A DNA stretch of 63,549 nucleotides from a virus. Its lineage: Duplodnaviria > Caudoviricetes. The notes under the pieces are model-generated. The model was not told the DNA's origin. It did not search any database and saw only the letters and a list, made by a program, of their open reading frames with translations. Both the position numbers and the translations under genes were made by a program. Shown in pieces: positions 6,001-59,912 of this stretch (position 1 is the first letter of the stretch; the number at the start of each line of letters is the position of its first letter). Where the stretch lies: IMG/VR virus record IMGVR_UViG_3300021598_000208, positions 1 through 63,549 of that record; one strand, given 5' to 3'.

Positions 6001-7508
6001 GTTTTGCTTTTGGAAACGGAGCAGAGAGTTATAAGATTCGTGACTCAATTGTAGGTAACTCATTTAACTTAGGCAACAGGGTTACATCTGTATCTGCTCA
6101 AGACTATCAAGAGGCTGATAGATTTGCTGACATTACATATAGTGGTGTTTATAATGCTGAGTCAAACGTAAACAAACTAAATGAGTTCAATGCAGGTCTT
6201 GTAAACTACAAGAACTTGGAGGCTTCATTTGGAGATATTTATATATTAGACGGAAGAGAGACTGACGTTCTTGTTTTACAAGAAGATAAGATTTCATACG
6301 TATTGGCTGATAAGAATTTATTATCGGACTCTACAGGAGGTGGTGTTGTATCATCTGTGCCTGAGGTATTGGGTACTCAGATTGCTCGTGTTGAGAAATA
6401 CGGTATCAGCTTTAACCCTGAGAGTTATGTGCAATGGGGTTACGACAGATTCTTTACAGATGCCAAAAGAGGTGCTGTATTACAATTAAGAGGTAACTCA
6501 TATTCTAACGAAGCCTTAAAGGTTATCTCTGAAATGAATATGAGAACTTGGTTTAGAGATGAGTTTATTACTCAGTTTAATACTCAAAAACTTGGAGGGT
6601 ATGACCCTTATATGAACGAGTATGTTCTATCTATAAACGCTCGTGAACTACCATACAGACCTGAGTGTTTGGATTGCGGTGTGTCTCAGACATTTACTTT
6701 AACCACACTTGCTGAAGAGCAAGGCTCAAATAGTTATTGCGTAGACTTAGGTCCTACGGTTGGCATTACTGATATTGAGTATACAGTATTCAGCATTAGC
6801 GAAGGTGGTACATTTGAGGTTATTGCAGAGTACGATGGAAGTACCTATACCTCAGGAGAGGTTTCTGAAAGCGGTACACTTAGCTTTGATAAAGACAATG
6901 TATCAGTAGAAACAGTAGACATTACCATTAACTATACCGGTGACATATCACTTGGTATGCTTGCTAATTGTTGTCAAGCTGATTCATTAAGTATTATTCA
7001 GATTGTTCTTACAAGCGATTACGATTCAGGAGATACTGTACACGCAGAATACAGATGGACGAATGGTTCATTTGTTTCTCCATTGCAGTCAAGTCTTGTA
7101 ACATTTGCATCAGGAACCACTAATCCTATCGTGTCAAGATACAATCTTACAACTGATAGCGTTGGTACAGGTGGATTCCCTCCTGCAGGTAGTGTAATGA
7201 GTTTGATTTCAAACAAATTCTCTACAGACACATTTGTGTTTACTCCTGCAGAAGACAAGTTTAAATACCACGTATCTAATACGTTGTACGCAAACAATAG
7301 TTCTGCTATCAATACGTTATTAGGATTGGCAACAACTGCTACTCCTAATGAGGGTGGTGGCAATTATAACTATGCTGAATTTACAGTACCTACTCTTCAA
7401 AATTATTTATATTTGATATGGGATTTTAGACAATCGGTTCCTGTAACTTTATGCTACTCAGATGAAGACATAACTGATGTGTGCTGTAATTGTACAACCC
7501 CTTCATAA
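3090..7508 (+). CDS. Tail stabilization/muzzle-like protein
   Basis: 1472 aa. N-terminus F.AGRMNK.MDQRLLPDGEY.DAMN and the YDNVP..AKAQTIMGNRLMYGNY motif resemble stabilization proteins of crAss-like and other Bacteroidota podoviruses. Confidence 0.65.
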   Translation: MANITRNFIAGRMNKVMDQRLLPDGEYIDAMNIRMGSTENSELGVIENTKGNLPLTTLKYINGTPLSANARCIGSIEDSANDTLYWFVHDSSFPVGLTGKLDLIVSFNVFTNILTYHIISINDGGNVNTTLNFNPTYLITGVNIIDGLLYFTDDYNAPRVINVRRNYANPISNIDQITAESILVIKKPPVQSPLVEPFVTNGQENYLDTRFICFAYRYRYIDGEYSATSQWSQPAFVPNPFEFSVESFLNEGMTNICNAAKITYNSGDSLVVGVDLLFKQSNGNIIKVIEKLDKSNLGLANNTDYTYTFTNSKIFTVLPEYEILRLYDNVPRYAKAQTIMGNRLMYGNYVEGYDLIDNDGVPIKLEYTTALVSTPIGNEELTDATVSGNYTINGSVNIANATVTIDLAGKNLVAGSAINVEIAIDHSQFTGQTPFPTETTQNVRLNFAFFLSTTYTSVYQLATSVEFQNAVGTAANIQTVANACNGITFTDSFNCAIPNNLDAFTKNGSGISAVGQPVSIITSPASSLIGFQFPAMRYVNNIVTPTQTFYEYYEVTFAEATFQEIANTQSLHSNRDYEIGIVYMDEFNRATTALVSPNNTEHIPCGLSAFKNTLQVTIPATQSPPAWATRYKFVIKPDEENYETIYCSIFFQDPITNNAYFLLEGENARKVEVGDRLIVKADSTGPTANCVYATVLEKSGQTSNFIEIPSALDPEVFIPIPAGIYMKINPNSFNIIQDELAIIQPGKQSVTSPRGGDFPILYYPMNRYDTATSAWVDYSIPAGSRIVMTISQTRSGVGDSCEKRTNLLQKTIIASNDYDNMYEWFVGDNVEQFLNDGERFADAGQCVPDNEFIPGITNTAGDILTDLCINYYKFYRNTSTNQLQLMITGTLPCTGVGYPNARASSVEANFVVFRADKNLIFETQPTDALPDVFFENNMSFAITNGNHMGNIQNQSIGAGTPAIVDTMFFNCFAFGNGAESYKIRDSIVGNSFNLGNRVTSVSAQDYQEADRFADITYSGVYNAESNVNKLNEFNAGLVNYKNLEASFGDIYILDGRETDVLVLQEDKISYVLADKNLLSDSTGGGVVSSVPEVLGTQIARVEKYGISFNPESYVQWGYDRFFTDAKRGAVLQLRGNSYSNEALKVISEMNMRTWFRDEFITQFNTQKLGGYDPYMNEYVLSINARELPYRPECLDCGVSQTFTLTTLAEEQGSNSYCVDLGPTVGITDIEYTVFSISEGGTFEVIAEYDGSTYTSGEVSESGTLSFDKDNVSVETVDITINYTGDISLGMLANCCQADSLSIIQIVLTSDYDSGDTVHAEYRWTNGSFVSPLQSSLVTFASGTTNPIVSRYNLTTDSVGTGGFPPAGSVMSLISNKFSTDTFVFTPAEDKFKYHVSNTLYANNSSAINTLLGLATTATPNEGGGNYNYAEFTVPTLQNYLYLIWDFRQSVPVTLCYSDEDITDVCCNCTTPS

Positions 7509-12714: not shown

Positions 12715-15700
12715 ATGAACGAGCAAGCATTACAGGACGCATACAATTTATTTGTAAGTCAAGGATACAAAAAAAGTATTGATGACTTTAAACAATTAAT
12801 TGCAACAAACCCTGAAGCGTTAAATGATTCTTATAGTTTATTTAAGTCTCAAGGTTATAACAAAAGTGTTGATGATTATAAAAATCTATTAGGAGTTTCT
12901 TCTGTTGCAGGTCAGCCTATTGTAAAAAAAAAAGTTACTACGGCTTTACCTTCGGAAGTTGGTTCTGTGGTTTCGTCAAAACCGACTGAAGATAAAGAAG
13001 TTGGATTTATTGGCAATTTAGCTTCATCTCTTGATAAGGCTGTTTTAAAAGGTTTTATTGGAGAGCCTATAAAAGCATTAGGTACATTTTTAGAATGGGG
13101 TACAAGTAAAGTTACCGGAGGTTCAGGTAAAGCGCCTATTAGCGATGCTTTAATAAAATTTGGTACAGAATACAATAAAATTATTGATGAACTTACCCCT
13201 CAGGATGAAGAGTTCAAAGGAACATTAACAGACCAATTTGGTCAAGCATTTGGGCAATTAGCATCTTTGGTTGCTACACAAGGTGCTGCAGGATTAATAG
13301 GAAATGCAGGTAAAGCTGCAACTGCATTAGAAATGGCACAGATGTCAGCGCAAGCTATCCCAAAAGCAACAGGCGCTTTTACGGCAGCTGCTAAAGAACT
13401 TGGTAAGACAATAAGCGCACCTGCTTCAGTAAGTGCAGGTCTTGCAATGGGTCAATCTGAATTTGAAAGAGCAAAAGAGGCAGGAGCAACTGATGAACAG
13501 GCTTACAATGTATTCTTAAAAAACTTATCCGTTGGTTCTGTTTTAGAAGCCATTCCTGTTATGGGATTCTTAAAAAGATTCAATAAAGCATCTGCAGGTG
13601 GTGTAGTCAATTATTTAAAAACTAAAGCAGTAGGTGGTCTTGTCGGTGGTACTGAGGAGATGACTACTGAAGTAATGCAGCAGTTGTACGCTAACCAAAC
13701 AGCAAAAGATATATATAATACGAATCAGGATTTATTTGAAGGCGTTGCTGAATCAGGAGGAGTAGGTTTTGGTGTTGGTTTCTTGCTTAACGCAATGGGT
13801 GCTAATGCTAAGATTCTTAGAAAAGAAGGAAAAAATGAAGAAGCAGATGTTGTAGAGCAACAAATAAAAGAATTTGAGCAGCAAGCAAAAAATGGCGGAC
13901 CTTCATCATATGCCTTTAATGGTATAAAAATACAACCTCTTCAAAAAGAAGACGGAACTATTGAAGACCCGACCTCGCTTATGACATCCATTATTGATAA
14001 TATGGATGGCAATGAATTAGCAAAAGCTAATATTGAAATAGTTAATGACCCTGCTCTTAAATTAAAGATGCAAGACAAAATTGTTACGGCATCTATTAAA
14101 GAACAAGTAAGGCAAGGTAATCCTGAACTTAATGAACCGAGCATTAATGCAATTACTGAATTAGAAAAAGAACTAAGAAAATTAGAAGGTAATACCACTC
14201 AGACAGGTAAGGATAAAGCTGCAGCCATACGTGCTCAGATTAAAAATATTCAAGAGAATCAGCTACAAGAAGAAGCTGTAACAGAAACAATAAAATCAGA
14301 ACAAGATGCCATTCAAAAGCAAGCAGCAGGTCAAGTACCTGTACAGCCAACAACCGGAATTAGCCAAGAAGTGGAGGGAGGAAAGCCCCAAGCAAAACTT
14401 GAAGGCATTACCGAAGAAGGTGAAACAACTGAAGTCAATCAAAAAGAAGTAATCATTGGTGCTCCTAAACAAGTGTCTTCAAAGACACTAACAGAACAAG
14501 AGCAGATTGCTCGTATGGAAGAAATGTTTGCTGAGCAGGAAGTGCCTGATGCTCCTCCTGTAAATCAAGGCACGTCAGTAACTAACAAGTCTGCATTAGA
14601 CCAAGTAAAGACTAAACTAAAAGATGATGCAAAAATATCTATTGTGGAGTCGGCACAAAGAGTCCTTACAACACTTCAATCAGTCCTTCCAAACTTTGAC
14701 ATTGTAGTGCACGATACCGATGATAGTTACGAAGCAGCTATGGGTTCAATTAATGCAACCCCGGATTCTGCAGGTAACTTCTCATATGTTAAAATGCCTG
14801 ATGGGTCATATGTTGGTCGTATTGACATCAACTTAAATAGAGCAAACCAAAGAACAGTAGGTCACGAAGTTGCCCACGGTGTTATGCTTAAAGCATTTGG
14901 AGAAAGTCCTGAGACATTTAAGAGCTTCAAGAACAGGATTGCATCTGTACTAAGTGAGAGTTCAAACAAGCAGCTATCTGACTTTGCAAGTCAATACGCT
15001 GAGATTGATTCATACGAGGAGTATCTTGCTGAATTAACTGCCGCATTAGAGCAACAGGAAGGCAAGATTGATACCACTACAATGCAGAGAATAGCTGCAT
15101 TAATTAATGAGTTGGTATCTAAAATTACTAATGGAGCATTCACTCCATTCCAAAATACGGCTGATACCAAAGAAGCAGTTGAGTTCTTTAGAAACATATC
15201 AGAGTCAATCCGTAAAGGTGAGGCTATCAAAGAAGCTGATATTGCTATTAAAAAGAAAGATACAAAAGAGGCTAAAGCTGAAAGAAAATCAAAGGCTCAG
15301 ATAATTGGTCGTAACGCACAGCTATCTGCTATTGCTAAGTTTAATTTAAACTTGGCTCGAGAGATGCAGAATAATAAGATGCCTGCTAAAGATATTAGAT
15401 TGGCTACCGGTTGGGAGAAGGGTTTAGATAAAAAATGGAGATACGAAATTCCTGATGGTAAGTTTAAAGACATTGACTTAGATGATTTAAAAAAAATAAT
15501 TGATAACGATGGTACAGCTATTAGGGTTTCTAAATTAGGAGATATATTTGATGCTCCTGATTTGTACCAAGCATATCCTGAAATTAAAGATATAAACGTT
15601 AGATTTAAAGAGTTGCCTCCAAGAAACTACGGTTCTTTTAATATTAGAGATAAAGTAATTACGGTTAATAAAGACCTGTACAATGAAAAAAGACCGGAGG

Positions 15701-22690: not shown

Positions 22691-24128
22691 AAAAATCTTT
22701 TTTAAAATGGTTAACGGTATAGTCTTTCTTCTTTGTAACAGCCTTGTAGATGTCGTATTCAATACCACCCTTAGAGAATATCCAATATACTTTATTCTCA
22801 AGGCGTTCCTTTGTGGTCATACGGTCTTTTGACTGCCAATAACTCGTTGCACTAAAGTCAATGTTGTAGAACACCAAGTACTCAGCTTGCTTCAAAGAGA
22901 TTCCTTCTCTGCCTGATACAATCTGAAGAGCGATGTTCTTATGAGTGTCTTCAAAGACACCAAGTTCAGTGGTCAACTCGTCACCAAAAACCTGCTTGAG
23001 TGCATTCAACTCTTCTTTGAACTTGTAGAAGATTCCAATCTTGCATCCCTCAAACTGCTGTTTGATAAACTCTGCTTTGCTTAGGTCAATCACCATTGAC
23101 TCACCATTCTCAAACTTAATAGTCCCTGAGCACAATTGATGAATCTTTGACATCAACTTCACAGGCGTGTCTGCTAATATGGTTTGGCTCTTACCTTCAA
23201 CCACAAGGTCTCTCTTTAGTTTCTGAATTAACTTATAAGTCAACTCGCTCATCTCAACCTGCAGAACCTCTTCGTCAGTCTTTGATAAGAAACCTGCCTC
23301 CTGCTGCGTGTAGCTTATGGTATACTTCTCCATCTCTTTAAGTATCTTATCTGTGCCTCCGCTATAGTCGTTCATCATCAACCCATTTATCTTCTTTTGC
23401 TTTACGTTGACATACTCATCGCAGAATCTGTAGAAACTTTTGTGATGGCTGAATGGACTCGTTGGTATACCATACACCTGATGGTACATCTGTGAGTAGG
23501 ACTCAGGCGTTGGCGTTCCTGATAAAAGTATAACCAATGGATTGTATTTACCTATGACTTGCTTTACCAATACGGCTCTGCCACTTGGCTTGGGAAACGC
23601 TCCCATACTATGTGCCTCATCGCAAATTATCAAATCCCATTTTGCTTTATCGGAAACAAGATGCAGGCTTTCGTAGTTGATGACCTCTATCTTATATCCC
23701 GGATTGAGCGTTGCGTAATCTGATTCAATAGATGATATGGCTTTCTTTTTGGTTACAAACAATACATTTTCAGCATTGCAAAGTTTCGCTATCCCAAGGC
23801 TCGTAAGCGTTTTACCTGTACGCACCTCCATTGCAAGATACAGGAAACGATGCTGCCGCAGGATGTCAACCGCTCGGTTGATTATATCAACCTGATAGTC
23901 CCTGAATTTGAATTTGTTTTCCATCTCGTATAAATTTTTGTAATACTCGCAACTCGTTACGATTCTTTCTATAACTTCTTTTTCTGTATTATATTTTAGT
24001 ACCCTGCGAATCTCGATAGCCTTACCTCGTCCCGTCTTTACTTCTTTGGTTTGAAGTATGATTCTCTTCAAAGACTCGCAGTACTCCAACATTGATTTGT
24101 TGTCCTGACCTGCTAATCTTTCTATCAT
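22677..24128 (-). CDS. SF2 (SNF2-like) helicase
   Basis: RDYQ, MEVRTGKT (Walker A), DEAH, LSGTP, GREGISL and QSKDR motifs. Confidence 0.9.
   Translation of the reverse strand: MIERLAGQDNKSMLEYCESLKRIILQTKEVKTGRGKAIEIRRVLKYNTEKEVIERIVTSCEYYKNLYEMENKFKFRDYQVDIINRAVDILRQHRFLYLAMEVRTGKTLTSLGIAKLCNAENVLFVTKKKAISSIESDYATLNPGYKIEVINYESLHLVSDKAKWDLIICDEAHSMGAFPKPSGRAVLVKQVIGKYNPLVILLSGTPTPESYSQMYHQVYGIPTSPFSHHKSFYRFCDEYVNVKQKKINGLMMNDYSGGTDKILKEMEKYTISYTQQEAGFLSKTDEEVLQVEMSELTYKLIQKLKRDLVVEGKSQTILADTPVKLMSKIHQLCSGTIKFENGESMVIDLSKAEFIKQQFEGCKIGIFYKFKEELNALKQVFGDELTTELGVFEDTHKNIALQIVSGREGISLKQAEYLVFYNIDFSATSYWQSKDRMTTKERLENKVYWIFSKGGIEYDIYKAVTKKKDYTVNHFKKDFYDND
22945..22960 (+). repeat. 16-bp palindrome copy 3 (inside helicase)
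   Basis: Exact match, read as VFEDT on the minus strand. Confidence 0.95.
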
Positions 24129-27841: not shown

Positions 27842-27857
27842 GTGTCTTTGAAGACAC
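27842..27857 (-). repeat. 16-bp palindrome copy 4
   Basis: Exact match on the minus strand, 4 nt 5' of the tRNA-like RNA. Confidence 0.95.
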
Positions 27858-31164: not shown

Positions 31165-31363
31165 TGTCTGTAAGTATTACGGATTTAGGATAGGCTTCTC
31201 GTAGTGCCTGCACGTAGTCGTCATTGCTGAATACAAAGTCACTCTCCCGCTCCTCATCAATCATTGGTTGAATGACTGAACGGATTTGCTTTTCGTTTAA
31301 TTGCGTTCCGAGTATAAAACTCTCCTCGTCCCACGCTGATGTTTTGATTCTGAAGATGTTCAT
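31136..31363 (-). CDS. Hypothetical protein
   Basis: ATG 31363 (MNIFRIKTSAWDEE) overlaps the upstream stop codon. Confidence 0.65.
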   Translation of the reverse strand: MNIFRIKTSAWDEESFILGTQLNEKQIRSVIQPMIDEERESDFVFSNDDYVQALREAYPKSVILTDNGDTDEIIF

Positions 31364-31506
31364 TTGTCTTGATTTTTTTGTTTTAAAATGTGTGCGACTT
31401 TGCGTCTCACAATTACTTTTAAGAATTTGTATGTGCAATAAGAACCTAATACCATACCTGCCATTGCACTAAAGAAGCAGGATACGAATAAAACAATTTG
31501 ATTCAT
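31360..31506 (-). CDS. Small membrane protein (48 aa, not in ORF track)
   Basis: MNQIVLFVSCFFSAMAGMVLGSYCTYKFLKVIVRRK...; ATGA coupling with the next gene. Confidence 0.55.
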   Translation of the reverse strand: MNQIVLFVSCFFSAMAGMVLGSYCTYKFLKVIVRRKVAHILKQKNQDK

Positions 31507-31529
31507 AGCCAATTAAATTTAATAAAATT

Positions 31530-31581
31530 TCCGTTTCATCCTTTTAGAATCATCAGTCGGGACAACTCATCCCGATACGGA
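31530..31581 (-). ncRNA. Type III hammerhead ribozyme HHR-C
   Basis: UCCG-UA / UCGGGAU-GAGUU-GUCCCGA / CUGAUGA / UUCU-AAAA-GGAU / GAAA-CGGA. Predicted cleavage after GUA, between 31576 and 31575. Confidence 0.85.
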
Positions 31582-31586
31582 GGGCA

Positions 31587-31602
31587 GTGTCTTTGAAGAC
31601 AC
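31587..31602 (-). repeat. 16-bp palindrome copy 5
   Basis: Exact match, 5 nt 5' of HHR-C. Confidence 0.95.
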
Positions 31603-31617
31603 CACCCTGAGCCAAGA

Positions 31618-32718
31618 CTAAGGTCGGAATCGTAGAACCTCAGTCTCAGTGAACCACTCATCGCAACCACTACAATGGTAGTTCGCAAACATATCGTGCT
31701 CTAAATCGTGGAAGCAATTTACACAAAACGGCTTCTCATTCTCGATGTCGAAGTCACAATCATCGCAATCATCATCCAATATGTCAAGCAGGTTTAACTG
31801 AACGCCACTGCTCGCAGGAATAAACTCTTCACTCTCCAATTCGTCCTGCTCATCATACCAAGCAAGTTTGTTTGAATACTGCTCGTATGTCTTATGGTGC
31901 TCCTCGCCTTTGCCACTCTGCTTGCTGTTGAAATATATCCAACAGGTAACGCTCTTACCTTTGAGCATAACCTGAATTAGTTTCCTCCTGTACCAAACAG
32001 GATGTCCCTCCAATGCGTCCAACTGCGTAAGCGTGTAATTACTTACTTTGAATACATCGACATCGACATTGTGCCCTGTGCCTTTGTCCTCAATCAGATA
32101 GGGCAATCCTTTAATCACTAATGGATACTTGTCTTTTGTCTCGCCACTGCCTAAAAATTTTGAGGTAGTAAGGTAACGGTTGTAATTGCTGTAACCTTTT
32201 TTTAGCGTGCCATATACAGCAATCAAATGGTCTTCAAAGACATTGTCTTTGCTGTACCAAACGCCATCCCTGTGTGTCCACAATTCTCTGTTGTAAATTT
32301 GAAATGTCCGGCTGAATGTATTGATGGTCACGAATCTGCAATCAAACTGCTCAAGATGACTTTTCCACTTGTGACGTGGAATTTCTCCGAGGTTCTCTGC
32401 CAAATGGCGTGAGTCACTTTTCTTTGCTGTGCCTAATGTACGGATAGTCCCGTTCATCATAAGCCACTCCTGTTTGTTGCTGCCGCATCTGAATGGGTGC
32501 GTGTTCTCTTTGTTGATAGCGCCAATGGTAGCATACCTGAAATGCGCAATGTAAGGTCTGTCTGTGTAAAGTACTTTGTACTCTGTAGATTTGTGGTAAG
32601 ATACCTCAAAAGTATCCAACCAAATAACGCCAAGTCCGTGAGGGTTTATTCTCGCTGATGTCTTAGCAACTTCTTTCGGGACAACTCGTCCCTTTTGCTT
32701 GATAATGATAACGCACAT
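31618..32718 (-). CDS. Class II glutamine amidotransferase fused to gamma-glutamylcyclotransferase and Zn ribbon
   Basis: ATG 32718 gives the N-terminal nucleophile Cys2 (MCVII). NPHGLG, HFRYAT.G, NTHPF, NG and SDS motifs, then VYGTLK...LDALEG (GGCT/AIG2), then CxxC..CxxC. Confidence 0.9.
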   Translation of the reverse strand: MCVIIIKQKGRVVPKEVAKTSARINPHGLGVIWLDTFEVSYHKSTEYKVLYTDRPYIAHFRYATIGAINKENTHPFRCGSNKQEWLMMNGTIRTLGTAKKSDSRHLAENLGEIPRHKWKSHLEQFDCRFVTINTFSRTFQIYNRELWTHRDGVWYSKDNVFEDHLIAVYGTLKKGYSNYNRYLTTSKFLGSGETKDKYPLVIKGLPYLIEDKGTGHNVDVDVFKVSNYTLTQLDALEGHPVWYRRKLIQVMLKGKSVTCWIYFNSKQSGKGEEHHKTYEQYSNKLAWYDEQDELESEEFIPASSGVQLNLLDILDDDCDDCDFDIENEKPFCVNCFHDLEHDMFANYHCSGCDEWFTETEVLRFRP

Positions 32719-32738
32719 ACTGATTTGATTTGTGGGCA

Positions 32739-32754
32739 GTGTCTTTGAAGACAC
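32739..32754 (-). repeat. 16-bp palindrome copy 6
   Basis: Exact match, 20 nt upstream of the GATase start. Confidence 0.95.
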
Positions 32755-32822
32755 AGAACCCGATTATTGAACTGATATTGAACGAAGATACGACATAAAT
32801 TAGACATATCCAAATTTATTTT

Positions 32823-32984
32823 TTAATAAACTTTCTTTGCCCTGAATTTTGTTCGCTCTAAATGGGGTCTGTCCACAATGAATTTGTAGTACGCCTTGTC
32901 AACAGCCTCCCACTTTGTGTGGGCGACTACTGACCATACGCATACCTGTCCATAGAATACTTTGAAATAATGTTGACTTTCCAT
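32823..32984 (-). CDS. Small hypothetical protein (53 aa, not in ORF track)
   Basis: MESQHYFKVFYGQVCVWSVVAHTKWEAVDKAYYKF...; has an AAATCAAG leader. Confidence 0.6.
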   Translation of the reverse strand: MESQHYFKVFYGQVCVWSVVAHTKWEAVDKAYYKFIVDRPHLERTKFRAKKVY

Positions 32985-33002
32985 ATTGACTTGATTTAAA
33001 AA

Positions 33003-33284
33003 TTAATAATCATCTTCCAACCTTTCACCTGCATAGGACTCATCGAAGTACCTATCCTTCCTGTACGGATACTTGTCACTCTCGTAACAATCTCCACACC
33101 AATGCCCTGTGCTGTACCCATAGGCGTCACTCTCTTCGCTAACGTTTGCCTTAGTACCACAGCCCCTGCAAGGGACTAAGTTCTCATTGCAACGCTCACA
33201 TAGATTTTCGTCAAACCACATATCGTGGTGACCTTGGGAGCACCCACATCCTGAGCACTCCCATACATCATTTGCTCTTGTCAT
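33003..33284 (-). CDS. Cys-rich zinc-binding protein
   Basis: Four CxxC pairs. Confidence 0.7.
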   Translation of the reverse strand: MTRANDVWECSGCGCSQGHHDMWFDENLCERCNENLVPCRGCGTKANVSEESDAYGYSTGHWCGDCYESDKYPYRKDRYFDESYAGERLEDDY

Positions 33285-33285
33285 C

Positions 33286-33480
33286 TTACTTTCTTTTTGA
33301 TACGTGATAGATTCTGATGCCGTTCTCGATTTTCATATCGATGGGATACACATCCACCAAGACATTGAGGTAGTACTTATACTCCTTTAATTTGTCCTCC
33401 GGTAGATATAATAGCCTGTCGATTACATCTTGAATGGTTTCGTTTCTTTGTTGTTCGGTTGTCATTTGTTCCTTTGTCAT
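33286..33480 (-). CDS. Hypothetical protein
   Basis: 64 aa with AAATCAAATCAAA leader. Confidence 0.65.
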   Translation of the reverse strand: MTKEQMTTEQQRNETIQDVIDRLLYLPEDKLKEYKYYLNVLVDVYPIDMKIENGIRIYHVSKRK

Positions 33481-33492
33481 TTTGATTTGATT

Positions 33493-33618
33493 TTAGTTTT
33501 TTGAATTTGAAGAGATTTCATCTCTCCAATGTTGAATTAAAGTTTTAACAAACACGTATAAAACGATGACTGACAGGCTAATAACTAAAGCCTCTAAAAT
33601 TGTGATGTGTGTGCCCAT
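33493..33618 (-). CDS. Small membrane protein (41 aa, not in ORF track)
   Basis: MGTHITILEALVISLSVIVLYVFVK...; leader AAATCAAATCAAATG. Confidence 0.6.
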   Translation of the reverse strand: MGTHITILEALVISLSVIVLYVFVKTLIQHWRDEISSNSKN

Positions 33619-33637
33619 TTGATTTGATTTTATTGGT

Positions 33638-33853
33638 TTACAATTGAACGCCTAAAACGTCCTTTAATGATTTTGAAATAAATTCGTGACCTCGGCTGAA
33701 TCTATCTTTGATAGTTATTCTGCCAATTTTTAAAGTCCACGTTCCATCTGAAAATTTTGTGATGGTTGACACAGGCGCTGTCTCATCAGGAATAAATCCT
33801 TCCTGTCTGAATACTCCCTGCACTTTCATAGTAAATAAAACATCTTGTCTCAT
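33638..33853 (-). CDS. Hypothetical protein
   Basis: ATG 33853 with AAATCAAATCAAATG leader, just after HHR-B. Confidence 0.65.
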   Translation of the reverse strand: MRQDVLFTMKVQGVFRQEGFIPDETAPVSTITKFSDGTWTLKIGRITIKDRFSRGHEFISKSLKDVLGVQL

Positions 33854-33874
33854 TTGATTTGATTTAAATGGTTT

Positions 33875-33925
33875 CCTGTTTCGTCCTGTTAGACTCATCA
33901 GGCAAGGCAAACACCTTGCGACAGG
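33875..33925 (-). ncRNA. Type III hammerhead ribozyme HHR-B
   Basis: CCUG-UC / GCAAGGU-GUUU-GCCUUGC / CUGAUGA / GUCU-AACA-GGAC / GAAA-CAGG. Predicted cleavage after GUC, between 33920 and 33919. Confidence 0.93.
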
Positions 33926-33927
33926 CT

Positions 33928-33943
33928 GTGTCTTTGAAGACAC
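33928..33943 (-). repeat. 16-bp palindrome copy 7
   Basis: Exact match, 2 nt 5' of HHR-B. Confidence 0.95.
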
Positions 33944-33952
33944 AGGCTCTTT

Positions 33953-34201
33953 TTAGAATCTGTGATACATCGACCCTTTTGCATTCGGGAAAACTGACCT
34001 ATCATATTTGTTGTTTTCAACCCATTTATCGTAACCTTCTAGCAATGCTTTGAACTCTGCCTCGTGGTTTACAGGGTCAAGTTTAACGCACATCAGGTTG
34101 TCCTCAATTTTAGAAAATTTAATTTTTGATTCTGTCAGGTAGCAATCCCACACTTTACTAAAATCAAAATAGTAATGCTCTTGAACGTTTTTAAATGTCA
34201 T
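33953..34201 (-). CDS. Hypothetical protein bracketed by two ribozymes
   Basis: ATG 34201 (MTFKNVQEHYYF...), 82 aa. Confidence 0.65.
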   Translation of the reverse strand: MTFKNVQEHYYFDFSKVWDCYLTESKIKFSKIEDNLMCVKLDPVNHEAEFKALLEGYDKWVENNKYDRSVFPNAKGSMYHRF

Positions 34202-34243
34202 TTTATTTGGTTTTGTGGAGGGTTTCAAACCTCCGGTTTTAAA

Positions 34244-34296
34244 TGCTGTTTCGTTCTTTTGAACTCATCAGGCAGAGCAAACACTCTGCGACAGCA
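34244..34296 (-). ncRNA. Type III hammerhead ribozyme HHR-A
   Basis: UGCUG-UC / GCAGAGU-GUUU-GCUCUGC / CUGAUGA / GUUC-AAAA-GAAC / GAAA-CAGCA. Predicted cleavage after GUC, between 34290 and 34289. Confidence 0.95.
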
Positions 34297-34315
34297 GGAG
34301 GGCAATTTGCCCTCC
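34297..34315. other. GC-rich hairpin abutting the 5' end of HHR-A
   Basis: GGAGGGCAATTTGCCCTCC inverted repeat with no U-tract. Confidence 0.7.
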
Positions 34316-34320
34316 CTGTG

Positions 34321-35232
34321 TCAATTCTCAATCCATTTGAGGATGTCTTGGTGAACCTCTCCTGTAAGGATATATTTTTGAAATAGCTTCGACAATCTTA
34401 TTACTTCATTCACTTTGTCCTCATTCCCATTGTACATAGATTTTAAAATTGGCGTTACGATTTTAATCATCGAGTCAAATTTGCCCTTCTTATTCACTGC
34501 GAAATTCACAACCTCATACATTAACTCGTAACGCCTCATCATCTGCTTTACTGACTCAAAGCGAGACGGCAACCTGAACTCAAGGCAATTTTCTTTCACG
34601 AGCGCAACCTGATATTTGTAGTGCCAATCATAGCGACCTAAACGCCTTGCCTCATCCTCTGTTACCATCCTCTTATTTTTGTTGCAATAGCTATTTTTTA
34701 GCCTATTTCTAAACAGGGCATAGATGATGCCGGCATAATTACGAACCTCCAATCTAATCTCATTGCCTGTCATTCCCTCCACGCCTAAGGTTATGTGACC
34801 TCCGCAATTTTGAGCGGATGGGCTGAACTTGTCATCGATGATTTTCTCTGCCTTGTGCATCATATCAAAAACCTTCGTGCGCCACATTCCTGCAGGCAAT
34901 AGGGGTAAAATGTGAGTCACTGCCTCATACCCATCCACGCCCGGATGCTCGCCACAGCTTCCGTCACGCTCAAAACCGCAAAACAATTCATATTCACGTA
35001 CTGCGCCTCTGTGCAATGTGTTTTTTTCAACCTCCATTCCGATGGTAAATTTGGCGCTGTATTCCATCCCGTCAAATTTGATAACGTCCCTTTGCTGTGT
35101 CTTTTTAAGACCTGCGATGTCGATATTGCTTTTGCTCTTGTGTAACATTAGCGGAGCGGGTTTGTGATGGTATCTTGTCACTGAACCTCTCATGCTGTCT
35201 CCTGTGGTTGTGTAAACGATTCCTGTATTCAT
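34321..35232 (-). CDS. Putative amidoligase (glutamine synthetase-like carboxylate-amine ligase)
   Basis: GMEVE, RDGS, YEAVT, CGGHIT and LEFR motifs. Confidence 0.8.
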   Translation of the reverse strand: MNTGIVYTTTGDSMRGSVTRYHHKPAPLMLHKSKSNIDIAGLKKTQQRDVIKFDGMEYSAKFTIGMEVEKNTLHRGAVREYELFCGFERDGSCGEHPGVDGYEAVTHILPLLPAGMWRTKVFDMMHKAEKIIDDKFSPSAQNCGGHITLGVEGMTGNEIRLEVRNYAGIIYALFRNRLKNSYCNKNKRMVTEDEARRLGRYDWHYKYQVALVKENCLEFRLPSRFESVKQMMRRYELMYEVVNFAVNKKGKFDSMIKIVTPILKSMYNGNEDKVNEVIRLSKLFQKYILTGEVHQDILKWIEN

Positions 35233-35249: not shown

Positions 35250-35265
35250 GTGTCTTTGAAGACAC
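35250..35265 (-). repeat. 16-bp palindrome copy 8
   Basis: Exact match, intergenic, upstream of the amidoligase. Confidence 0.95.
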
Positions 35266-35269
35266 AGGG

Positions 35270-35920
35270 TTAAAATTGAGAATTTAAAAAAGCTACTGCC
35301 TCCGCTACTTCACCGCTCGTGCCATTGGTTTTGATGTTTCCGTTTGCATCAATTTTTAGTGACACTTTTTTGCCGTCTGTATTTTTGTAGGTAAAGGAAA
35401 AGATGGTTTCCGCTCTTGTTTCTACCTGTGCGCCTGTGCCTTCGCCTTCGCCTTCTGCTTCGCCTTCTCCACTGCCTTCGCCTGTTTCTCCACTGCCTGC
35501 GCCTGTTGTTTCCATCTGCTTAGCGAATTTCAATAATCCCTCTAATGACCTGTTAGGCTCTTGACCTTGTGCCTCTGCCTCTTCACATTTGGTTTTGAAC
35601 GTGGCAATGGTTTCCTCCTGTAGTCTGCCTGCCTTTACAACCTTGTAGAAAAAAGACTTTTGCCATCCGAAAACTTTCTGCCCGATTTCCTCATTGCTCC
35701 AAGTGATGCCCTCTTCGTTCATTAGGCTTCTGCCCTCTTCAGAGGCAAACCAATCAACAGCAGAGGTAACCAATTTGGACAGCGCCAATGTTTGTTCAAA
35801 TTTTTTCTTCTTTGCGTTCGTGATGGTTCTTTGCACGCTGCGAATTTCTGTAAGATTCAAACCTTGTTTTACTGCAGGTAGGTTTAGGAAAGCCTGCTCG
35901 ATGTTTAGCAAATTGCTCAT
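35270..35920 (-). CDS. Hypothetical protein with GE-rich linker (first early gene)
   Basis: 216 aa with a GEGSGEGEAEGEGEG repeat. Confidence 0.8.
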   Translation of the reverse strand: MSNLLNIEQAFLNLPAVKQGLNLTEIRSVQRTITNAKKKKFEQTLALSKLVTSAVDWFASEEGRSLMNEEGITWSNEEIGQKVFGWQKSFFYKVVKAGRLQEETIATFKTKCEEAEAQGQEPNRSLEGLLKFAKQMETTGAGSGETGEGSGEGEAEGEGEGTGAQVETRAETIFSFTYKNTDGKKVSLKIDANGNIKTNGTSGEVAEAVAFLNSQF

Positions 35921-36026
35921 AACTGATTGATTTTTAATGATTTAGGTTAATTGTTGTACATTGCTAGTGCAATGCCTGTACAATATTAGTACAATACTTT
36001 GATATAAAAAACAATTATTTTAAAAA

Positions 36027-36035
36027 TGTGGATAA
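36027..36035 (-). promoter_or_regulatory. Consensus DnaA box TTATCCACA
   Basis: TGTGGATAA in the AT-rich divergent region; single copy. Confidence 0.4.
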
Positions 36036-36109
36036 CTATTTTTTGTGAGCGGAATATTTACAGGTCAAAAGATGGGGATGGGGTTACCTCTCTTCTGCAA
36101 CCTTGTGCA

Positions 36110-36125
36110 GTGTCTTCAAAGACAC
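36110..36125 (+). repeat. 16-bp palindrome copy 9
   Basis: Exact match in the divergent non-coding region. Confidence 0.95.
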
Positions 36126-36430
36126 AGGAGGAGGCAGGGAGGAGGAGCGGAGACAGGAGGAGGGATGGCAGGGAGGAGGCACGAGCGCCACAGGAACGGG
36201 AGCGGAGGCGCAATGGTTAGCGCCTCTGCTACTACATAGGCACGCTACGGAAAAGCTAAAAAATCCGGCAGGGGATTTTGAAAACGCACCCCCACCCCCT
36301 CAAAAAAAAATGACTTTCGTTTTCGGGTCGGCTGCGCCAAATGCCCCTATAACCCAAACACTACTACTATCTGAAAATTTTTTTATCTTTACTCTGAAAT
36401 ATTTCTAAAAACGTTTTAAAACAAATTATT

Positions 36431-36748: not shown

Positions 36749-36768
36749 GTACCTACCTATGTTAAATT

Positions 36769-37006
36769 CGACATTATTGTCATTAATTTATGTCGTTTTT
36801 ATGTCGACTTGATTTTTCTAACTTATTGATTATTAATACTTTATTTCTTTAATGTCGAAAATGTCGATTTTAAAGAGCATTTACGGCACAACAGTGTCGT
36901 AAACTCAGCTAAACCCTTGATACTATTGCGTTTGAGCGAATGTCGAGTTTTGACAAACCAACATATACTTGGCATAAATCGACATCAAGATTTTAAATTC
37001 CGACAT
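36769..37006. promoter_or_regulatory. ATGTCG iteron cluster with two IHF consensus sites (candidate origin)
   Basis: ATGTCG at 36790, 36801, 36852, 36861 and 36940; inverted CGACAT at 36769, 36980 and 37001; YAANNNNTTGATW at 36819 and 36910. Confidence 0.6.
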
Positions 37007-41123: not shown

Positions 41124-41458
41124 TGAAAGACGCTTGCTATAAAAAAGTCAAAGCATCGTATGATGTATTCCCATCTGCTCGTGCATCACAAGCAATAGCT
41201 AAGTGTCGCAAGGGTTCAGGTGTGGTGAGAAAGACTGAGGCAGGCAGTAGTTTGAAAAGGTGGGAGAAAGAGAAGTGGCAGGATACAAAAACAGGTAAAG
41301 CCTGTGGTGCAGGTGGTAGCAATGAATATTGCAGACCAACAACAAGAGTGTCTTCAAAGACACCGAAAACAAAATCGGAAATAAGTCCTTCTAAACTTGC
41401 CTCTAAAAAAGCTGAGAAGTCAAGAGTTGGTATGGGTAGAAGAGTTTTAAATATTTAA
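41123..41458 (+). CDS. Small basic phage protein (DUF5872-like)
   Basis: KDACYKKVK..Y.VFPSA.AS; LKRW.KEKW; YCRP..RVSSKTPKT. Confidence 0.75.
   Translation: MKDACYKKVKASYDVFPSARASQAIAKCRKGSGVVRKTEAGSSLKRWEKEKWQDTKTGKACGAGGSNEYCRPTTRVSSKTPKTKSEISPSKLASKKAEKSRVGMGRRVLNI
41348..41363 (+). repeat. 16-bp palindrome copy 10 (intragenic)
   Basis: Exact match, read as VSSKT. Confidence 0.9.
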
Positions 41459-44012: not shown

Positions 44013-44420
44013 ATGCCTACAGAAGAGCATATTGCCAACTTTAAGTTATTAGCTGAGAATGTATTTGAGCCTATTCGCAATAACTTTAGATGTCCAATTC
44101 ATATCTCAAGTGGATACAGGTCTGCTGAACTTAACAAATGCATTGGTGGCTCATCTACCTCTCAGCATTGCAAAGGTCAGGCTGTTGACATTGATATGGA
44201 CGGCACTCCAAATGGTGTGACTAATAAGATGGTCTTTGATTATATCAAGGACAACTTAGAGTTCGACCAATTGATAGCTGAGTTCCCAAAACAGGGTAAG
44301 CCTGATTGGGTGCACGTTTCTTACAGTGAAGGTAAAAATAGAAAGCAAATACTTGTAGCTAAAAAGGTTAATAGTAAAACTACATACATATCTTACAGTA
44401 GTGAAAAAGACCTTTCATAA
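44013..44420 (+). CDS. Endolysin, peptidase M15 family (true 5' end apparently missing)
   Basis: ISSGYRS..LN..IGG...SQH.KGQAVDI and WVHVSY. The frame extends upstream as DLSELIRSESAKRNGISN with no start codon. Confidence 0.9.
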   Translation: MPTEEHIANFKLLAENVFEPIRNNFRCPIHISSGYRSAELNKCIGGSSTSQHCKGQAVDIDMDGTPNGVTNKMVFDYIKDNLEFDQLIAEFPKQGKPDWVHVSYSEGKNRKQILVAKKVNSKTTYISYSSEKDLS

Positions 44421-45097
44421 TGGCTTATGTATACAGGCATATTAGGTTAGATAAAAATCAACCATTTTACATTGGCGTTGGAACGTATGATACATACAAA
44501 AGAGCGTACGATAAAAAAAACAGGAATTTACATTGGAATAATATCGTCAAAAAAACTGATTATGAGGTTGATATTTTAATTGATGGGCTTTCAGAAAAAG
44601 ATGCTTTTGCTAAAGAGATTGAATTTATATCTTTATATGGAAAGTCTTGTAATGGAGGTTTGCTTTGTAATATAACTGACGGTGGAGAGGGAGGATTTTT
44701 AAGTGAAGAGGTAAATGAAAAGAGAAAATTAGCCTTATTAGGTAGGAAATTACCAAGTCATATTAAAGAAAAGATAAGAATAAAGGCTATTGGAAGGAAG
44801 GCAAGTTTTCTTACAAAAGAAAAAATGTCTGAAATACATAAGAAAAACGGAACAGGAATATGGCTTAAAAGCAAAGGTCACCAAAATGGTAATGCAAAAT
44901 CTATTTCTCAGTTTGATTTAGATGGTAATTTTATAAAAACTTGGGAATGTTCTGCTTATGCTTGCAAGGAATTATTAATAAATAAGTCTTCATTGTCTTC
45001 CGTTTTAAATGGCAATCAAAAAACAGCAGGCGGTTTTATATGGAAATTTCATAAAATCAAATCAAATGGCAAAACATCTTACCTTAATATTACTTAG
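44420..45097 (+). mobile_element. Free-standing GIY-YIG-like homing endonuclease with NUMOD3/NUMOD1-type domains
   Basis: YVYRH...FYIGVG, LCNITDGGEG, TKEKMSE and QFDLDGNFIKTW...KTAGGFIWKF; AT-rich. Confidence 0.8.
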
Positions 45098-57688: not shown

Positions 57689-59912
57689 TCTATGCCGTAT
57701 AGTCGATAATCATATACCGGCTGCCGTTATCTCTAACAAAAATAGAGTGAGGTCGTGGCTATATGGGTATAACGACCAATACGATGTTGTTGTAATTTCA
57801 AAGACCGGACAGATAGGACAGATAGTAGAGATAGCAGGATTAATTATTGCTCTTCCACTTGCTCCTGATAAGTGTCTTCAAAGACACTCCGCTAAAGCCG
57901 AACAGTATTGGGAGCGTCAGCCATTACCCCGTGAGTTAGCCAAGATACAATCCATATTTCAATGGAATGAAAAGCCAAAAGATTTTAAAGACCGTTGGGT
58001 CGATTATATAGAGCAGGAGTTTGACTACCGTGAACAGGGATATTGGTTTATGAACAATGGGGTCAAAACCTACATAACCGGCTCGCATTATATGTACTTG
58101 CAATGGTCAAGTATTGACGTGGGTTATCCTGACTTTCGTGAAGCCAATAGAATCTATTGGATATTTTGGGAAGCCTGTCGTGCAGACCCAAGGTCATTTG
58201 GTATGATATACCTAAAGATTAGACGTTCGGGGTTCTCGTTTATGTCATCCTCAGAGTGCGTGAACATAGGTACGCTCGCACGTGACGCACGTATAGGTAT
58301 CTTATCTAAGACGGGTTCCGATGCTAAGAAGATGTTCACCGATAAGGTTGTACCTATCAATAGCCGTCTACCATTCTTTTTCAAACCGGTGATGGATGGT
58401 ATGGACAAGCCAAAAACTGAGTTGGCATATAGGGTACCGGCAGCAAAGATTACCAAGAAGAATATGTATGAGACTGACGACAATGATGTCGATGGACTTG
58501 ATACATCAATAGATTGGAAGAATACTGAGGATAACTCATACGATGGAGAGAAGCTACTATTCTTGGCTCACGATGAGTCTGCTAAATGGACTAAGCCTGT
58601 AAACATTAAAGAGAATTGGCGTGTAACCAAAACCTGTCTTCGCTTGGGTAGTAAGATTATTGGCAAGTGTATGATGGGTTCAACGTCCAATGCTTTAAGC
58701 AAAGGCGGGCAGAACTATAAAGATATTTACGAGGACTCAAATGTAAAAATCCGTAACGCCAACGGGCAGACCAAGAGTGGTCTATATGCCATATTTATTC
58801 CGATGGAGTGGAATATGGAGGGATTCATTGACAAGTATGGTCATCCTGTGTTTCGTAAACCTGAGGAGCCTATTATGGGTGTGGATGGTGTTATGATAAA
58901 GAACGGAGCCATTGACTATTGGGAAGCGGAGGTTGACTCATTGAAAAATGATGCTGACGCACTGAACGAGTTTTACCGTCAGTTCCCACGTACAGAGTCT
59001 CACGCTTTTCGTGATGAGAGCAAGCAAGCCTTGTTTAACCTGACCAAGATATATCAGCAGATTGACTATAACGACTCAATGATTAAAGAGCATTACCTTA
59101 CTCGAGGAATGTTTTCTTGGAAGGATGGTATTAAGGATACGCAGGTAGTTTGGACCCCGGACCCAAGAGGTAGGTTCAATATAAGTTGGGCACCACCTAA
59201 GCATATGCAAAACAACATACACATCCGAAATGGGATAAAGTATCCCGGTAACGAGCACCTTGGCTCTTTTGGATGTGACTCTTATGACATATCAGCGGTT
59301 GTTGGAGGCAGGGGGTCTAATGGCTCTTTGCACGGTATGACTAAGTTCCATATGGACGATGCGCCTGTCAATGAGTTTTTCTTGGAGTATATTGCCCGTC
59401 CACAAACAGCAGAAATATTTTTTGAGGAAGTATTAATGGCTTGTGTTTTCTATGGAATGCCTATCTTAGTAGAGAATAACAAACCGAGACTTTTGTATCA
59501 TTTGAAAAACAGAGGTTACAGAGGTTTCTCAATCAATAGACCTGACAAGCAAATGGCAAAGCTGACAAAGACTGAGCGGGAGTTAGGTGGTATACCAAAC
59601 TCATCTGAGGATGTTAAGCAAGCGCACGCTGCAGCCATTGAGTCGTATATTGAGAAGTTTATAGGATTTGATTTAGAAGCTAAATATAGAGACCCGGAAC
59701 AAATGGGTACAATGCCGTTCACAAGAACGCTTGAGGATTGGGCAAAGTTTGACATTTCTGATAGAACTAAATTTGATGCCTCTATTAGTTCGGGTTTAGC
59801 CATTATGGCTAACCAAAAGCATCTATATGTTTCTGAGAAAAAAGAATCAAAATTAATTATTAACTTCGCTAAATATAAGAACGAAGGTACAACAAGTCAA
59901 TTGATTAGATGA
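57663..59912 (+). CDS. terL: Terminase large subunit
   Basis: KIRRSGFS (Walker A), LAHDE (Walker B), GST coupling motif and FGCDSYD nuclease motif. Confidence 0.9.
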   Translation: MQKEGQNNNLCRIVDNHIPAAVISNKNRVRSWLYGYNDQYDVVVISKTGQIGQIVEIAGLIIALPLAPDKCLQRHSAKAEQYWERQPLPRELAKIQSIFQWNEKPKDFKDRWVDYIEQEFDYREQGYWFMNNGVKTYITGSHYMYLQWSSIDVGYPDFREANRIYWIFWEACRADPRSFGMIYLKIRRSGFSFMSSSECVNIGTLARDARIGILSKTGSDAKKMFTDKVVPINSRLPFFFKPVMDGMDKPKTELAYRVPAAKITKKNMYETDDNDVDGLDTSIDWKNTEDNSYDGEKLLFLAHDESAKWTKPVNIKENWRVTKTCLRLGSKIIGKCMMGSTSNALSKGGQNYKDIYEDSNVKIRNANGQTKSGLYAIFIPMEWNMEGFIDKYGHPVFRKPEEPIMGVDGVMIKNGAIDYWEAEVDSLKNDADALNEFYRQFPRTESHAFRDESKQALFNLTKIYQQIDYNDSMIKEHYLTRGMFSWKDGIKDTQVVWTPDPRGRFNISWAPPKHMQNNIHIRNGIKYPGNEHLGSFGCDSYDISAVVGGRGSNGSLHGMTKFHMDDAPVNEFFLEYIARPQTAEIFFEEVLMACVFYGMPILVENNKPRLLYHLKNRGYRGFSINRPDKQMAKLTKTERELGGIPNSSEDVKQAHAAAIESYIEKFIGFDLEAKYRDPEQMGTMPFTRTLEDWAKFDISDRTKFDASISSGLAIMANQKHLYVSEKKESKLIINFAKYKNEGTTSQLIR
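57872..57887 (+). repeat. 16-bp palindrome copy 11 (inside terminase)
   Basis: Exact match, read as CLQRH. Confidence 0.95.

Follow-up and report, generated by a model that had tools for sequence, protein, structure and literature searches.

Three compact hammerhead ribozymes of type III stand between small genes on the minus strand of an uncultured lake phage, whose full-length IMG/VR record IMGVR_UViG_3300021598_000208 was analysed over all its 63,549 bases (henceforth the window). Judged by sequence and predicted fold, they are genuine hammerheads. All three are found within 2.8 kb and on the gene strand. They probably cut a leftward multi-gene transcript into separate pieces while it is made, without a host RNase. 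Four observations lead to this reading: the sense orientation of the ribozymes, their placement between stop and start codons, the selection on their pairing and core, and the lack of terminators. The cutting of a polycistronic mRNA without host RNases had been suggested in a first-pass annotation made from the letters alone. It fits the orientation, the intergenic position and the lack of terminators, and the processing itself is still a proposal. The annotation overlooked a near-constant hairpin on the upstream side of the ribozymes and a published precedent (Perreault et al., 2011, PMC3088659).

The three hammerheads of the window

Hammerhead 1 (34243-34297, minus strand) and hammerhead 2 (33873-33927, minus strand) have a GUC site and a G10.1-C11.1 pair, and cleavage is predicted at 34290/34289 and 33920/33919, respectively. 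Hammerhead 3 (31528-31583, minus strand) has a GUA site and a U10.1-U11.1 mismatch, with predicted cleavage at 31576/31575. A recount of the sequence gave the same three cleavage positions as the first-pass annotation. The order of parts is identical in the three elements: the 5' strand of stem III leads to the triplet GUC, GUC or GUA, stem I (closed) is followed by CUGAUGA and stem II (closed) by GAAA, and the 3' strand of stem III completes the element.

In an E-value search of 4 kb, the Rfam family RF00008 (Hammerhead_3) aligned with all three elements over model positions 1-54 of 54. The scores are 42.3 bits (E 4.9e-07), 37.9 bits (E 8.4e-06) and 32.1 bits (E 3.6e-04) for hammerheads 1, 2 and 3, and the corresponding E-values for the whole window are 7.8e-06, 1.3e-04 and 5.7e-03. 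Relative to the model, these alignments show an insertion of 5-6 bases in stem I and its loop and a loss of 4 positions in loop II. The assignment of three type III hammerheads to the minus strand is borne out by the end-to-end alignments together with the reading of that strand. The Rfam comparison proposed for them thus succeeded in the alignments, but no element reaches the gathering score of 48.5 bits, which is a cut-off for automatic annotation and not a biochemical criterion. For this reason, a default Rfam scan of the window at the gathering threshold reported nothing. This holds a lesson for annotation, as the gathering cut-off misses the compact hammerhead type altogether.

All three elements carry the full catalytic core, including the A15.1-U16.1 pair and an H17 other than G. 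Folded alone, each has a three-way junction as its minimum-energy structure. The full core and three stems described in the first-pass annotation are hence present in every element, except that stem II of the third opens with U-U, which is not a pair. The pattern CTGATGA-N8-30-GAAA occurs only at these three sites on both strands of the 63.5 kb (5 overlapping matches versus 1.19 expected; one of 100 shuffles got to 5). No other ribozyme family was found in the window at E <= 1.

The elements follow the preceding stop codon by 23, 25 and 34 nucleotides (nt), and the next ATG follows them after 41, 19 and 21 nt. These distances agree with the earlier statement that each element lies after a stop codon and 20-45 nt before a start. 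A second hairpin is located at 34216-34235 between hammerhead 1 and the next ATG, which gives this ribozyme the longest (41 nt) and most structured leader of the three.

Conservation of the ribozymes and their upstream hairpin

To assess conservation, 80 related IMG/VR loci were collected with the GGACT-domain protein that is encoded ahead of hammerhead 3 (48-76% protein identity; mostly contigs of about 60 kb). A covariance model, R1, was built from the three window elements and the element of the Bruynoghevirus PaP4. The R1 scores of these four are circular and were excluded as evidence. Two further loci in the R1 set were duplicates of contigs already included, giving 83 sources in all. R1 found 160 matches in them, 158 at E <= 8.9e-06 and 157 beyond the three of the window, which itself has three matches in all. 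All 160 have the same strand as the GGACT gene, and 72 of the 80 related loci contain one or more of the best 150 matches. In each of five complete relatives, a single strand carries all 2-4 copies, which are confined to 1.2-4.1 kb of the roughly 60 kb. Synteny in related phages had been suggested as a check in the first-pass annotation; behind the GGACT gene, a hammerhead is present in 37 of 79 loci.

Among 116 distinct sequences, 96.8% of the cells in paired columns are paired, compared with 73.0% in shuffles and 34-45% when the partners are slid. Changes on both sides were counted in 514 cells versus 141.9 in shuffles. They affect 12 of the 16 pairs, and stem I uses every pair type. Since this alignment had been fitted to the R1 model, covariation was re-tested with an unfitted MAFFT alignment and RNAalifold on 35 of the 160 matches. 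This yielded the same three helices and compensatory changes in 11 of 15 pairs.

The catalytic core varies little. C3, G5, A6, G8, G12, A13, A14, A15.1 and U16.1 are invariant (116/116), U4 and A9 are each kept in 115 sequences, and N7 is variable. Position 7 is variable in known hammerheads, too. H17 is C in 66, A in 46 and U in 4 relatives and never G, and position 10.1-11.1 is G-C in 81, G-U in one and no standard pair in 34. Inner stem III is near-constant (C in column 5 in 112, G in column 7 in 114). Several loop bases are steady while the stems vary: U in column 16 (116), G in column 17 (109), A in column 43 (112) and A in column 45 (116). This fits a contact between loop I and loop II but does not prove it. 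Such a tertiary contact is needed for fast cleavage at physiological Mg2+. Altogether, selection for structure, which the first-pass annotation had read from three elements, is well supported by the pairing, the compensatory changes and the invariant core of the 116 relatives.

The surroundings of the ribozymes were examined in 129 distinct contexts, in which open reading frames (ORFs) were called simply as same-strand ATG-ORFs. The distance from the stop codon to the element has a median of 32 nt (quartiles 27-35, n = 124), and that from the element to the next ATG-ORF a median of 24 nt (19-47, n = 129). The spacer of about 30 nt between stop codon and element is a hairpin. A folding energy of <= -10 kcal/mol was obtained for the 43 nt upstream in 112 of 124 contexts, but in only 13 of 120 coding controls. 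Between the end of the hairpin and the conserved part of stem III there is a gap of 0-1 nt in 108 of 118 cases, so that cleavage would leave the upstream RNA with the hairpin and a tail of 5-6 nt. In the window, the hairpins are located on the minus strand at 34297-34316, 33926-33945 and 31582-31607 before hammerheads 1, 2 and 3, respectively. For the 43 nt upstream of hammerhead 1, RNAfold calculated -16.1 kcal/mol, and the last bases of this hairpin overlap the first two model positions. Outside the GGACT-based family, the link between hairpin and hammerhead is weaker, with 26 of 40 in other IMG/VR contigs versus 6 of 40 controls, and 21 of 41 in contigs of metagenome-assembled genomes (MAGs) versus 10 of 41 controls.

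Many of these hairpins share a sequence. The near-palindromic 16-mer GTGTCTTCAAAGACAC with a UUCAAA loop is present within 2 mismatches in 84 of the 124 upstream contexts. In the window it forms part of the hairpins before hammerheads 2 (33928-33943) and 3 (31587-31602). The remaining contexts build the hairpin from unrelated sequences; hammerhead 1, whose hairpin is unlike the 16-mer, is among them. In total, the window contains 11 copies within 2 mismatches versus 0.03 expected. Besides the two just mentioned, they are located at 330-345, 14473-14488, 22945-22960, 27842-27857, 32739-32754, 35250-35265, 36110-36125, 41348-41363 and 57872-57887. The orientation of the loop follows the local gene direction in 10 of the 11 copies, the exception being the antisense copy at 22945. 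Long ORFs contain four of the copies, including that at 57872, and a T-run after the copy at 330 makes it resemble a terminator. Four of the five complete relatives have 11-14 copies (reversed control: 0), and the UUCAAA loop persists in more distant relatives, where another stem carries it. The 16-mer may be a binding site for some factor. As it also occurs without a ribozyme and inside ORFs, its role may be unrelated to the protection of 3' ends.

Copy number and position of the hammerheads vary among close relatives. The U-U variant is commoner after the GGACT gene (22 of 38) than upstream of it (13 of 102). A block with a 64 amino acid (aa) ORF at window positions 33497-33003 is 91% identical to positions 5807-6301 of the related locus L084, and its flanks are 74-79% identical. 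In L084 this block starts 3 nt past a hammerhead that the window lacks, and the same applies to L004 (3382-3598) and L006 (3384-3603). That the shared block begins right after such a hammerhead in three relatives suggests that gene cassettes and ribozymes are gained and lost together.

Proposed processing of a multi-gene transcript and its alternatives

On the minus strand, no terminator-like site was found from about 36000 to 31121. A weak one is present at 31121-31094, and the terminator scan found the first strong hairpin with a T-run downstream only at 27345-27326. A leftward, promoter-proximal and probably early multi-gene transcript would include all three hammerheads. Each would belong to a fixed module composed of a stop codon, a stable hairpin, the 55-nt hammerhead, an A-rich leader of about 20-40 nt and an ATG. 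The ribozyme would fold behind the passing RNA polymerase and cut after H17, with no host RNase involved. Hammerhead cleavage gives a 2',3'-cyclic phosphate upstream and a 5'-OH downstream, and stem-loops slow 3' exonucleases. By this established chemistry, the upstream mRNA would obtain a new 3' end composed of the hairpin and the short tail with a 2',3'-cyclic phosphate, which should be a poor substrate for 3' exonucleases. At the start of the downstream mRNA there would be a 5'-OH, and stems I and II would precede a uniform A-rich leader. Such 5'-OH ends might resist decay, as the first-pass annotation had supposed. The hairpin may, in addition, stack on stem III, which is short and open, and keep upstream coding sequence away from the ribozyme. 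The net effect would be pieces that are separately stable and separately translated, with a 5' context independent of the upstream gene. We infer that the unit is transcribed early, that the ribozymes cleave in vivo and that cleavage affects stability and translation.

With about 120 distinct, strictly placed copies and a fixed hairpin neighbour, the term 'polycistronic RNA processing' becomes concretely predictive. Upstream RNAs should have a 3' end capped by the hairpin and a tail of 5-6 nt, downstream RNAs should begin with 5'-OH leaders whose length is fixed, and cutting rates should differ between G-C and U-U sites.

Several observations weigh against this reading. All three elements score below the gathering cut-off of Rfam (42.3, 37.9 and 32.1 versus 48.5), and at the foot of stem II hammerhead 3 has no 10.1-11.1 pair. 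If the upstream hairpin is included in the folding, the minimum-energy structures of hammerheads 1 and 2 have other pairings in place of stem III. The crude ORF call gave an overlap with a same-strand ATG-ORF of at least 40 aa for 34 of the 129 elements; most of these ORFs are short, and some have 100-130 aa. The 16-mer hairpin is also found without a ribozyme and within long ORFs. Furthermore, the closest GenBank relative, MW202828, has no significant hammerhead match, and Cellulophaga phage phi38:1 has no hammerhead match. A hammerhead follows the GGACT gene in only 37 of 79 loci. The modules are hence dispensable.

The main alternative, which we consider unlikely, is that the hammerheads are regulated or attenuating cutters. 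Cleavage would be tuned by competition with the folding of the hairpin, by a binder of the UUCAAA hairpin or by Mg2+, and would lower or time the expression of the flanking genes. Such tuning has been raised for phage variants in the accessible text of an earlier study (Perreault et al., 2011, PMC3088659). The loss of stem III in the in-context minimum-energy folds of hammerheads 1 and 2 would suit it, but these alternative folds are nearest-neighbour predictions, which penalise multiloops. The 16-mer is conserved in sequence and not in shape alone, both beside the ribozymes (84 of the 124 contexts) and in copy number (11-14 in four of five relatives), which suggests a specific binder. Similarly, the U-U variant is used unevenly (22/38 versus 13/102), as if the sites needed different rates. 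However, no ligand- or protein-binding extension is visible, and the elements are minimal, with 55 nt and conserved loops.

Quite improbable, although compatible with RNA processing, is a main role at the level of DNA or as a selfish cassette. In this case, the conserved hairpin-hammerhead unit of about 90 nt would mark the borders of exchangeable small-gene cassettes and offer homology for recombination, and the ribozyme would spread along with gene shuffling or even drive it. The mosaic breakpoints that L084, L004 and L006 share with window 33497-33003 coincide with module ends, but intergenic breakpoints would be expected anyway. The differing copy number and position among close relatives also point to mobility, as do the similarity of hammerhead 3 to elements of 65 Pseudomonas phage records (about 92% over 47 nt) and the same compact type in at least 120 stretches of MAG contigs. 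However, a DNA-level role alone would predict neither that stems covary freely, with only pairing and catalytic core kept, nor that all 160 copies are sense-oriented.

Very little speaks for the excision of the RNA between paired hammerheads, e.g., the 370-nt piece with an 82-aa ORF between hammerheads 1 and 2, and the rejoining of the 5'-OH and cyclic-phosphate ends into a circular or spliced RNA. With inner stem III near-constant, two copies could pair with each other, the 5' strand of the first with the 3' part of the second; yet a short G+C-rich stem III is expected for stability alone, and nothing points to ligation. According to the accessible text of Perreault et al. (2011; PMC3088659), the possibility was mentioned there and such products were not detected. 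That the elements are chance look-alikes or decayed, inactive relics, as might be read from their sub-threshold Rfam scores and the U-U mismatch of hammerhead 3, is hardly credible, since the E-values range from 5e-07 to 4e-04, the core is invariant and compensatory changes occur across the 116 distinct copies, and strand and position are strict.

A broader role of the module could also be imagined, which is possible but doubtful. The hairpin-hammerhead would be a portable punctuation cassette that provides a hairpin-capped, terminator-like 3' end without stopping transcription and a standard 5' end for the next gene. The UUCAAA hairpin, with its at least 11 oriented copies, might be where a factor of phage or host docks and ties cutting to the infection programme. 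Moving among phages of unrelated hosts (Flavobacteriia-type phages, the Pseudomonas Bruynoghevirus and the elements of Patescibacteria MAGs), the cassette might seed the exchange of gene cassettes at its borders.

Precedents, distribution and genomic setting

Clusters of hammerheads that flank single genes or short gene blocks in prophages have been reported for Clostridium scindens, Azorhizobium caulinodans and Agrobacterium tumefaciens (Perreault et al., 2011, PMC3088659; here and below as given in the accessible text of that paper). Native polycistronic RNAs of about 2 kb from three bacteria were cleaved in vitro, and the A. tumefaciens ribozymes were active in vivo after cloning. It was proposed that long phage transcripts are processed to mRNAs of operon or gene length (Perreault et al., 2011). 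The window resembles these clusters in that several close hammerheads in one transcription unit lie between small phage genes of varying identity. At least two hammerheads of the same orientation flanking phage genes or gene blocks are found in it, namely three in 2.8 kb. As clustered phage hammerheads were described in 2011, the window case belongs to a known kind, and its novelty is modest. There are three differences. All copies of the window family have one compact 55-nt type III form. They occur in lytic-type phages of about 60 kb from aquatic metagenomes, whereas the published loci are prophage-like. Finally, a hairpin adjoins the hammerhead in 112 of 124 contexts, and no such hairpin is mentioned in the accessible part of the 2011 paper. 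The modest additions made here are the large, regular family of aquatic phages, the adjoining hairpin and the link between hammerhead 3 and Bruynoghevirus.

The HHphage of the haloviruses HF1 and HF2 is located 13 nt before the first gene of an early polycistronic transcript, and a mapped 5' end lies within three nt of its cleavage site (Perreault et al., 2011, PMC3088659). As far as that text describes it, this hammerhead is structurally unusual, is treated beside a high-salt variant and is present in a single copy in an archaeal virus, unlike the hammerheads of the window. According to the accessible part of a 2019 review, the biological purpose of bacterial and phage hammerheads is still undefined (PMC6765202). 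Among the papers listed, none dealt with hammerheads in Elemovirus, Cellulophaga or Flavobacterium phages; the supplements of the 2011 paper could list such sequences. Among the matches listed, the literature since 2018 contained no survey of hammerhead clusters in DNA phages, and the search for hammerheads with LUZ24, PaP3 or Bruynoghevirus returned only the 2011 paper.

In the T7 early region, RNase III cuts one long early transcript between genes and leaves upstream mRNAs with a 3' stem-loop. The outcome is like that proposed here, but T7 needs the host RNase III acting on a double-stranded site, whereas the sites of the window are predicted to cut themselves and do not belong to the same family. 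RiboJ is an engineered hammerhead with a hairpin placed before a gene, which frees the 5' leader from upstream sequence. There the hairpin follows the ribozyme; in the window it precedes the ribozyme and would stay on the upstream RNA.

Over 47 nt, hammerhead 3 shares 91.7% identity with the element of PaP4 and of 25 other listed records, and about 92% with elements from 65 Pseudomonas phage records, which are of very different G+C content. PaP3 carries the same element. The Bruynoghevirus element of PaP3 and PaP4 shares stem I, the U10.1-U11.1 mismatch, the GUA site and the type of loop II with hammerhead 3. In PaP4 and PaP3 it is a single copy just before the ATG of an end-proximal gene, whereas the window phage has a series. 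In the accessible text, the PaP3 hammerhead is reported to be active, among active core variants (Perreault et al., 2011, PMC3088659). By our own reading of the PaP3 sequence and of the text of that paper, the tested PaP3 hammerhead appears to be the U-U variant.

A cultured Flavobacterium phage, vB_FspP_elemoE_6-9C, has one good type III hammerhead (NC_055854.1, 18097-18153, minus strand, 38.7 bits) with A at position 7. In Cellulophaga phage phi19:3 (NC_021789.1; 1501-1545 of locus L094), a weaker core match of 23.5 bits without stem I was found. The predictions could be tested in vB_FspP_elemoE_6-9C and in the Pseudomonas Bruynoghevirus phages with the type of hammerhead 3. Full-length transcript data are published for LUZ24, which is linked to this type by the genus Bruynoghevirus only; the word 'ribozyme' is absent from the accessible part of that paper (PMC10914365).

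Bacterial MAG contigs contain the same compact core with a GUYC-AAAA-GRAC stem II in at least 120 stretches; among the matches listed, the labels are mostly Saccharibacteria, Paceibacterota and other Patescibacteria. All 30 MAG loci examined have full-length model matches, often 2-4 on one strand. These Patescibacteria matches were considered as a clue to the host of the phage and rejected as uninformative. L105, L109 and L142, IMG/VR contigs with the U-U pattern from outside the GGACT-based set, have up to five same-strand hammerheads within about 5 kb. Such series suggest that operon-wide hammerhead series are common in environmental phages.

The window codes for a large terminase, a portal and virion proteins as well as for GroEL, a Sak-type annealing protein, a PDDEXK exonuclease, a BT4734-N/DUF5906 primase-helicase-like protein and an SNF2 helicase. 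The terminase is closest to that of MW202828, an uncultured spring-water podovirus (78.5% identity). Terminases from Flavobacterium, Cellulophaga and Tenacibaculum phages share 31-44% identity with that of the window; the phage is accordingly related to podophages of Flavobacteriia, and its host is probably a member of this group. Maribacter is named in the tally of the terminase comparison alone. Neither a tRNA nor a tmRNA was found in the window.

Leftward genes span 20.8-35.9 kb and start at a divergent intergenic region of 0.5 kb (35921-36430). The first 4.4 kb contain small ORFs without a family match and the GGACT-domain protein, and recombination and replication genes follow. From this gene layout, 'early operon' is a reasonable inference as a label for the unit. 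The first ORF, which adjoins the divergent region, encodes 216 aa (35270-35920, minus strand, like all ORFs of this unit) and has no family match. It is followed by a 303-aa ORF (34321-35232), likewise without a family match, whose stop codon lies 23 nt before hammerhead 1. An 82-aa ORF (33953-34201) stands between hammerheads 1 and 2, and the ATG of a 71-aa ORF (33638-33853) is located 19 nt past hammerhead 2. The GGACT-domain protein, a gamma-glutamyl cyclotransferase-like protein of 366 aa (31618-32718; Pfam PF06094, E 1.1e-22; phrog_2520), ends 34 nt ahead of hammerhead 3. The ATG of a small 48-aa ORF (31360-31506) lies 21 nt past this ribozyme. PHROGs had no family for 9 of the 10 ORFs of the unit that were submitted (seven around the ribozymes, two further downstream), and Pfam had none for the two largest of those without a family. 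The GGACT protein is the only one of the ten with a family match.

A sigma-70 promoter scan was no better than shuffles (34 versus 26.3 expected), and it is unsuited to the likely Bacteroidota host. For both reasons, no promoter was placed. A C/T-rich stretch of low complexity at 36120-36200 on the minus strand adjoins the 16-mer copy in the divergent intergenic region. Near this region, 6 of the 13 TCGACAT copies of the window are found within 218 bp of non-coding DNA (36768-36985). The cluster looks like iterons and could be a replication origin or an operator array. An ORF of a homing-endonuclease family (225 aa, 44420-45097; phrog_314, E 1.9e-19) is located within the rightward late region.

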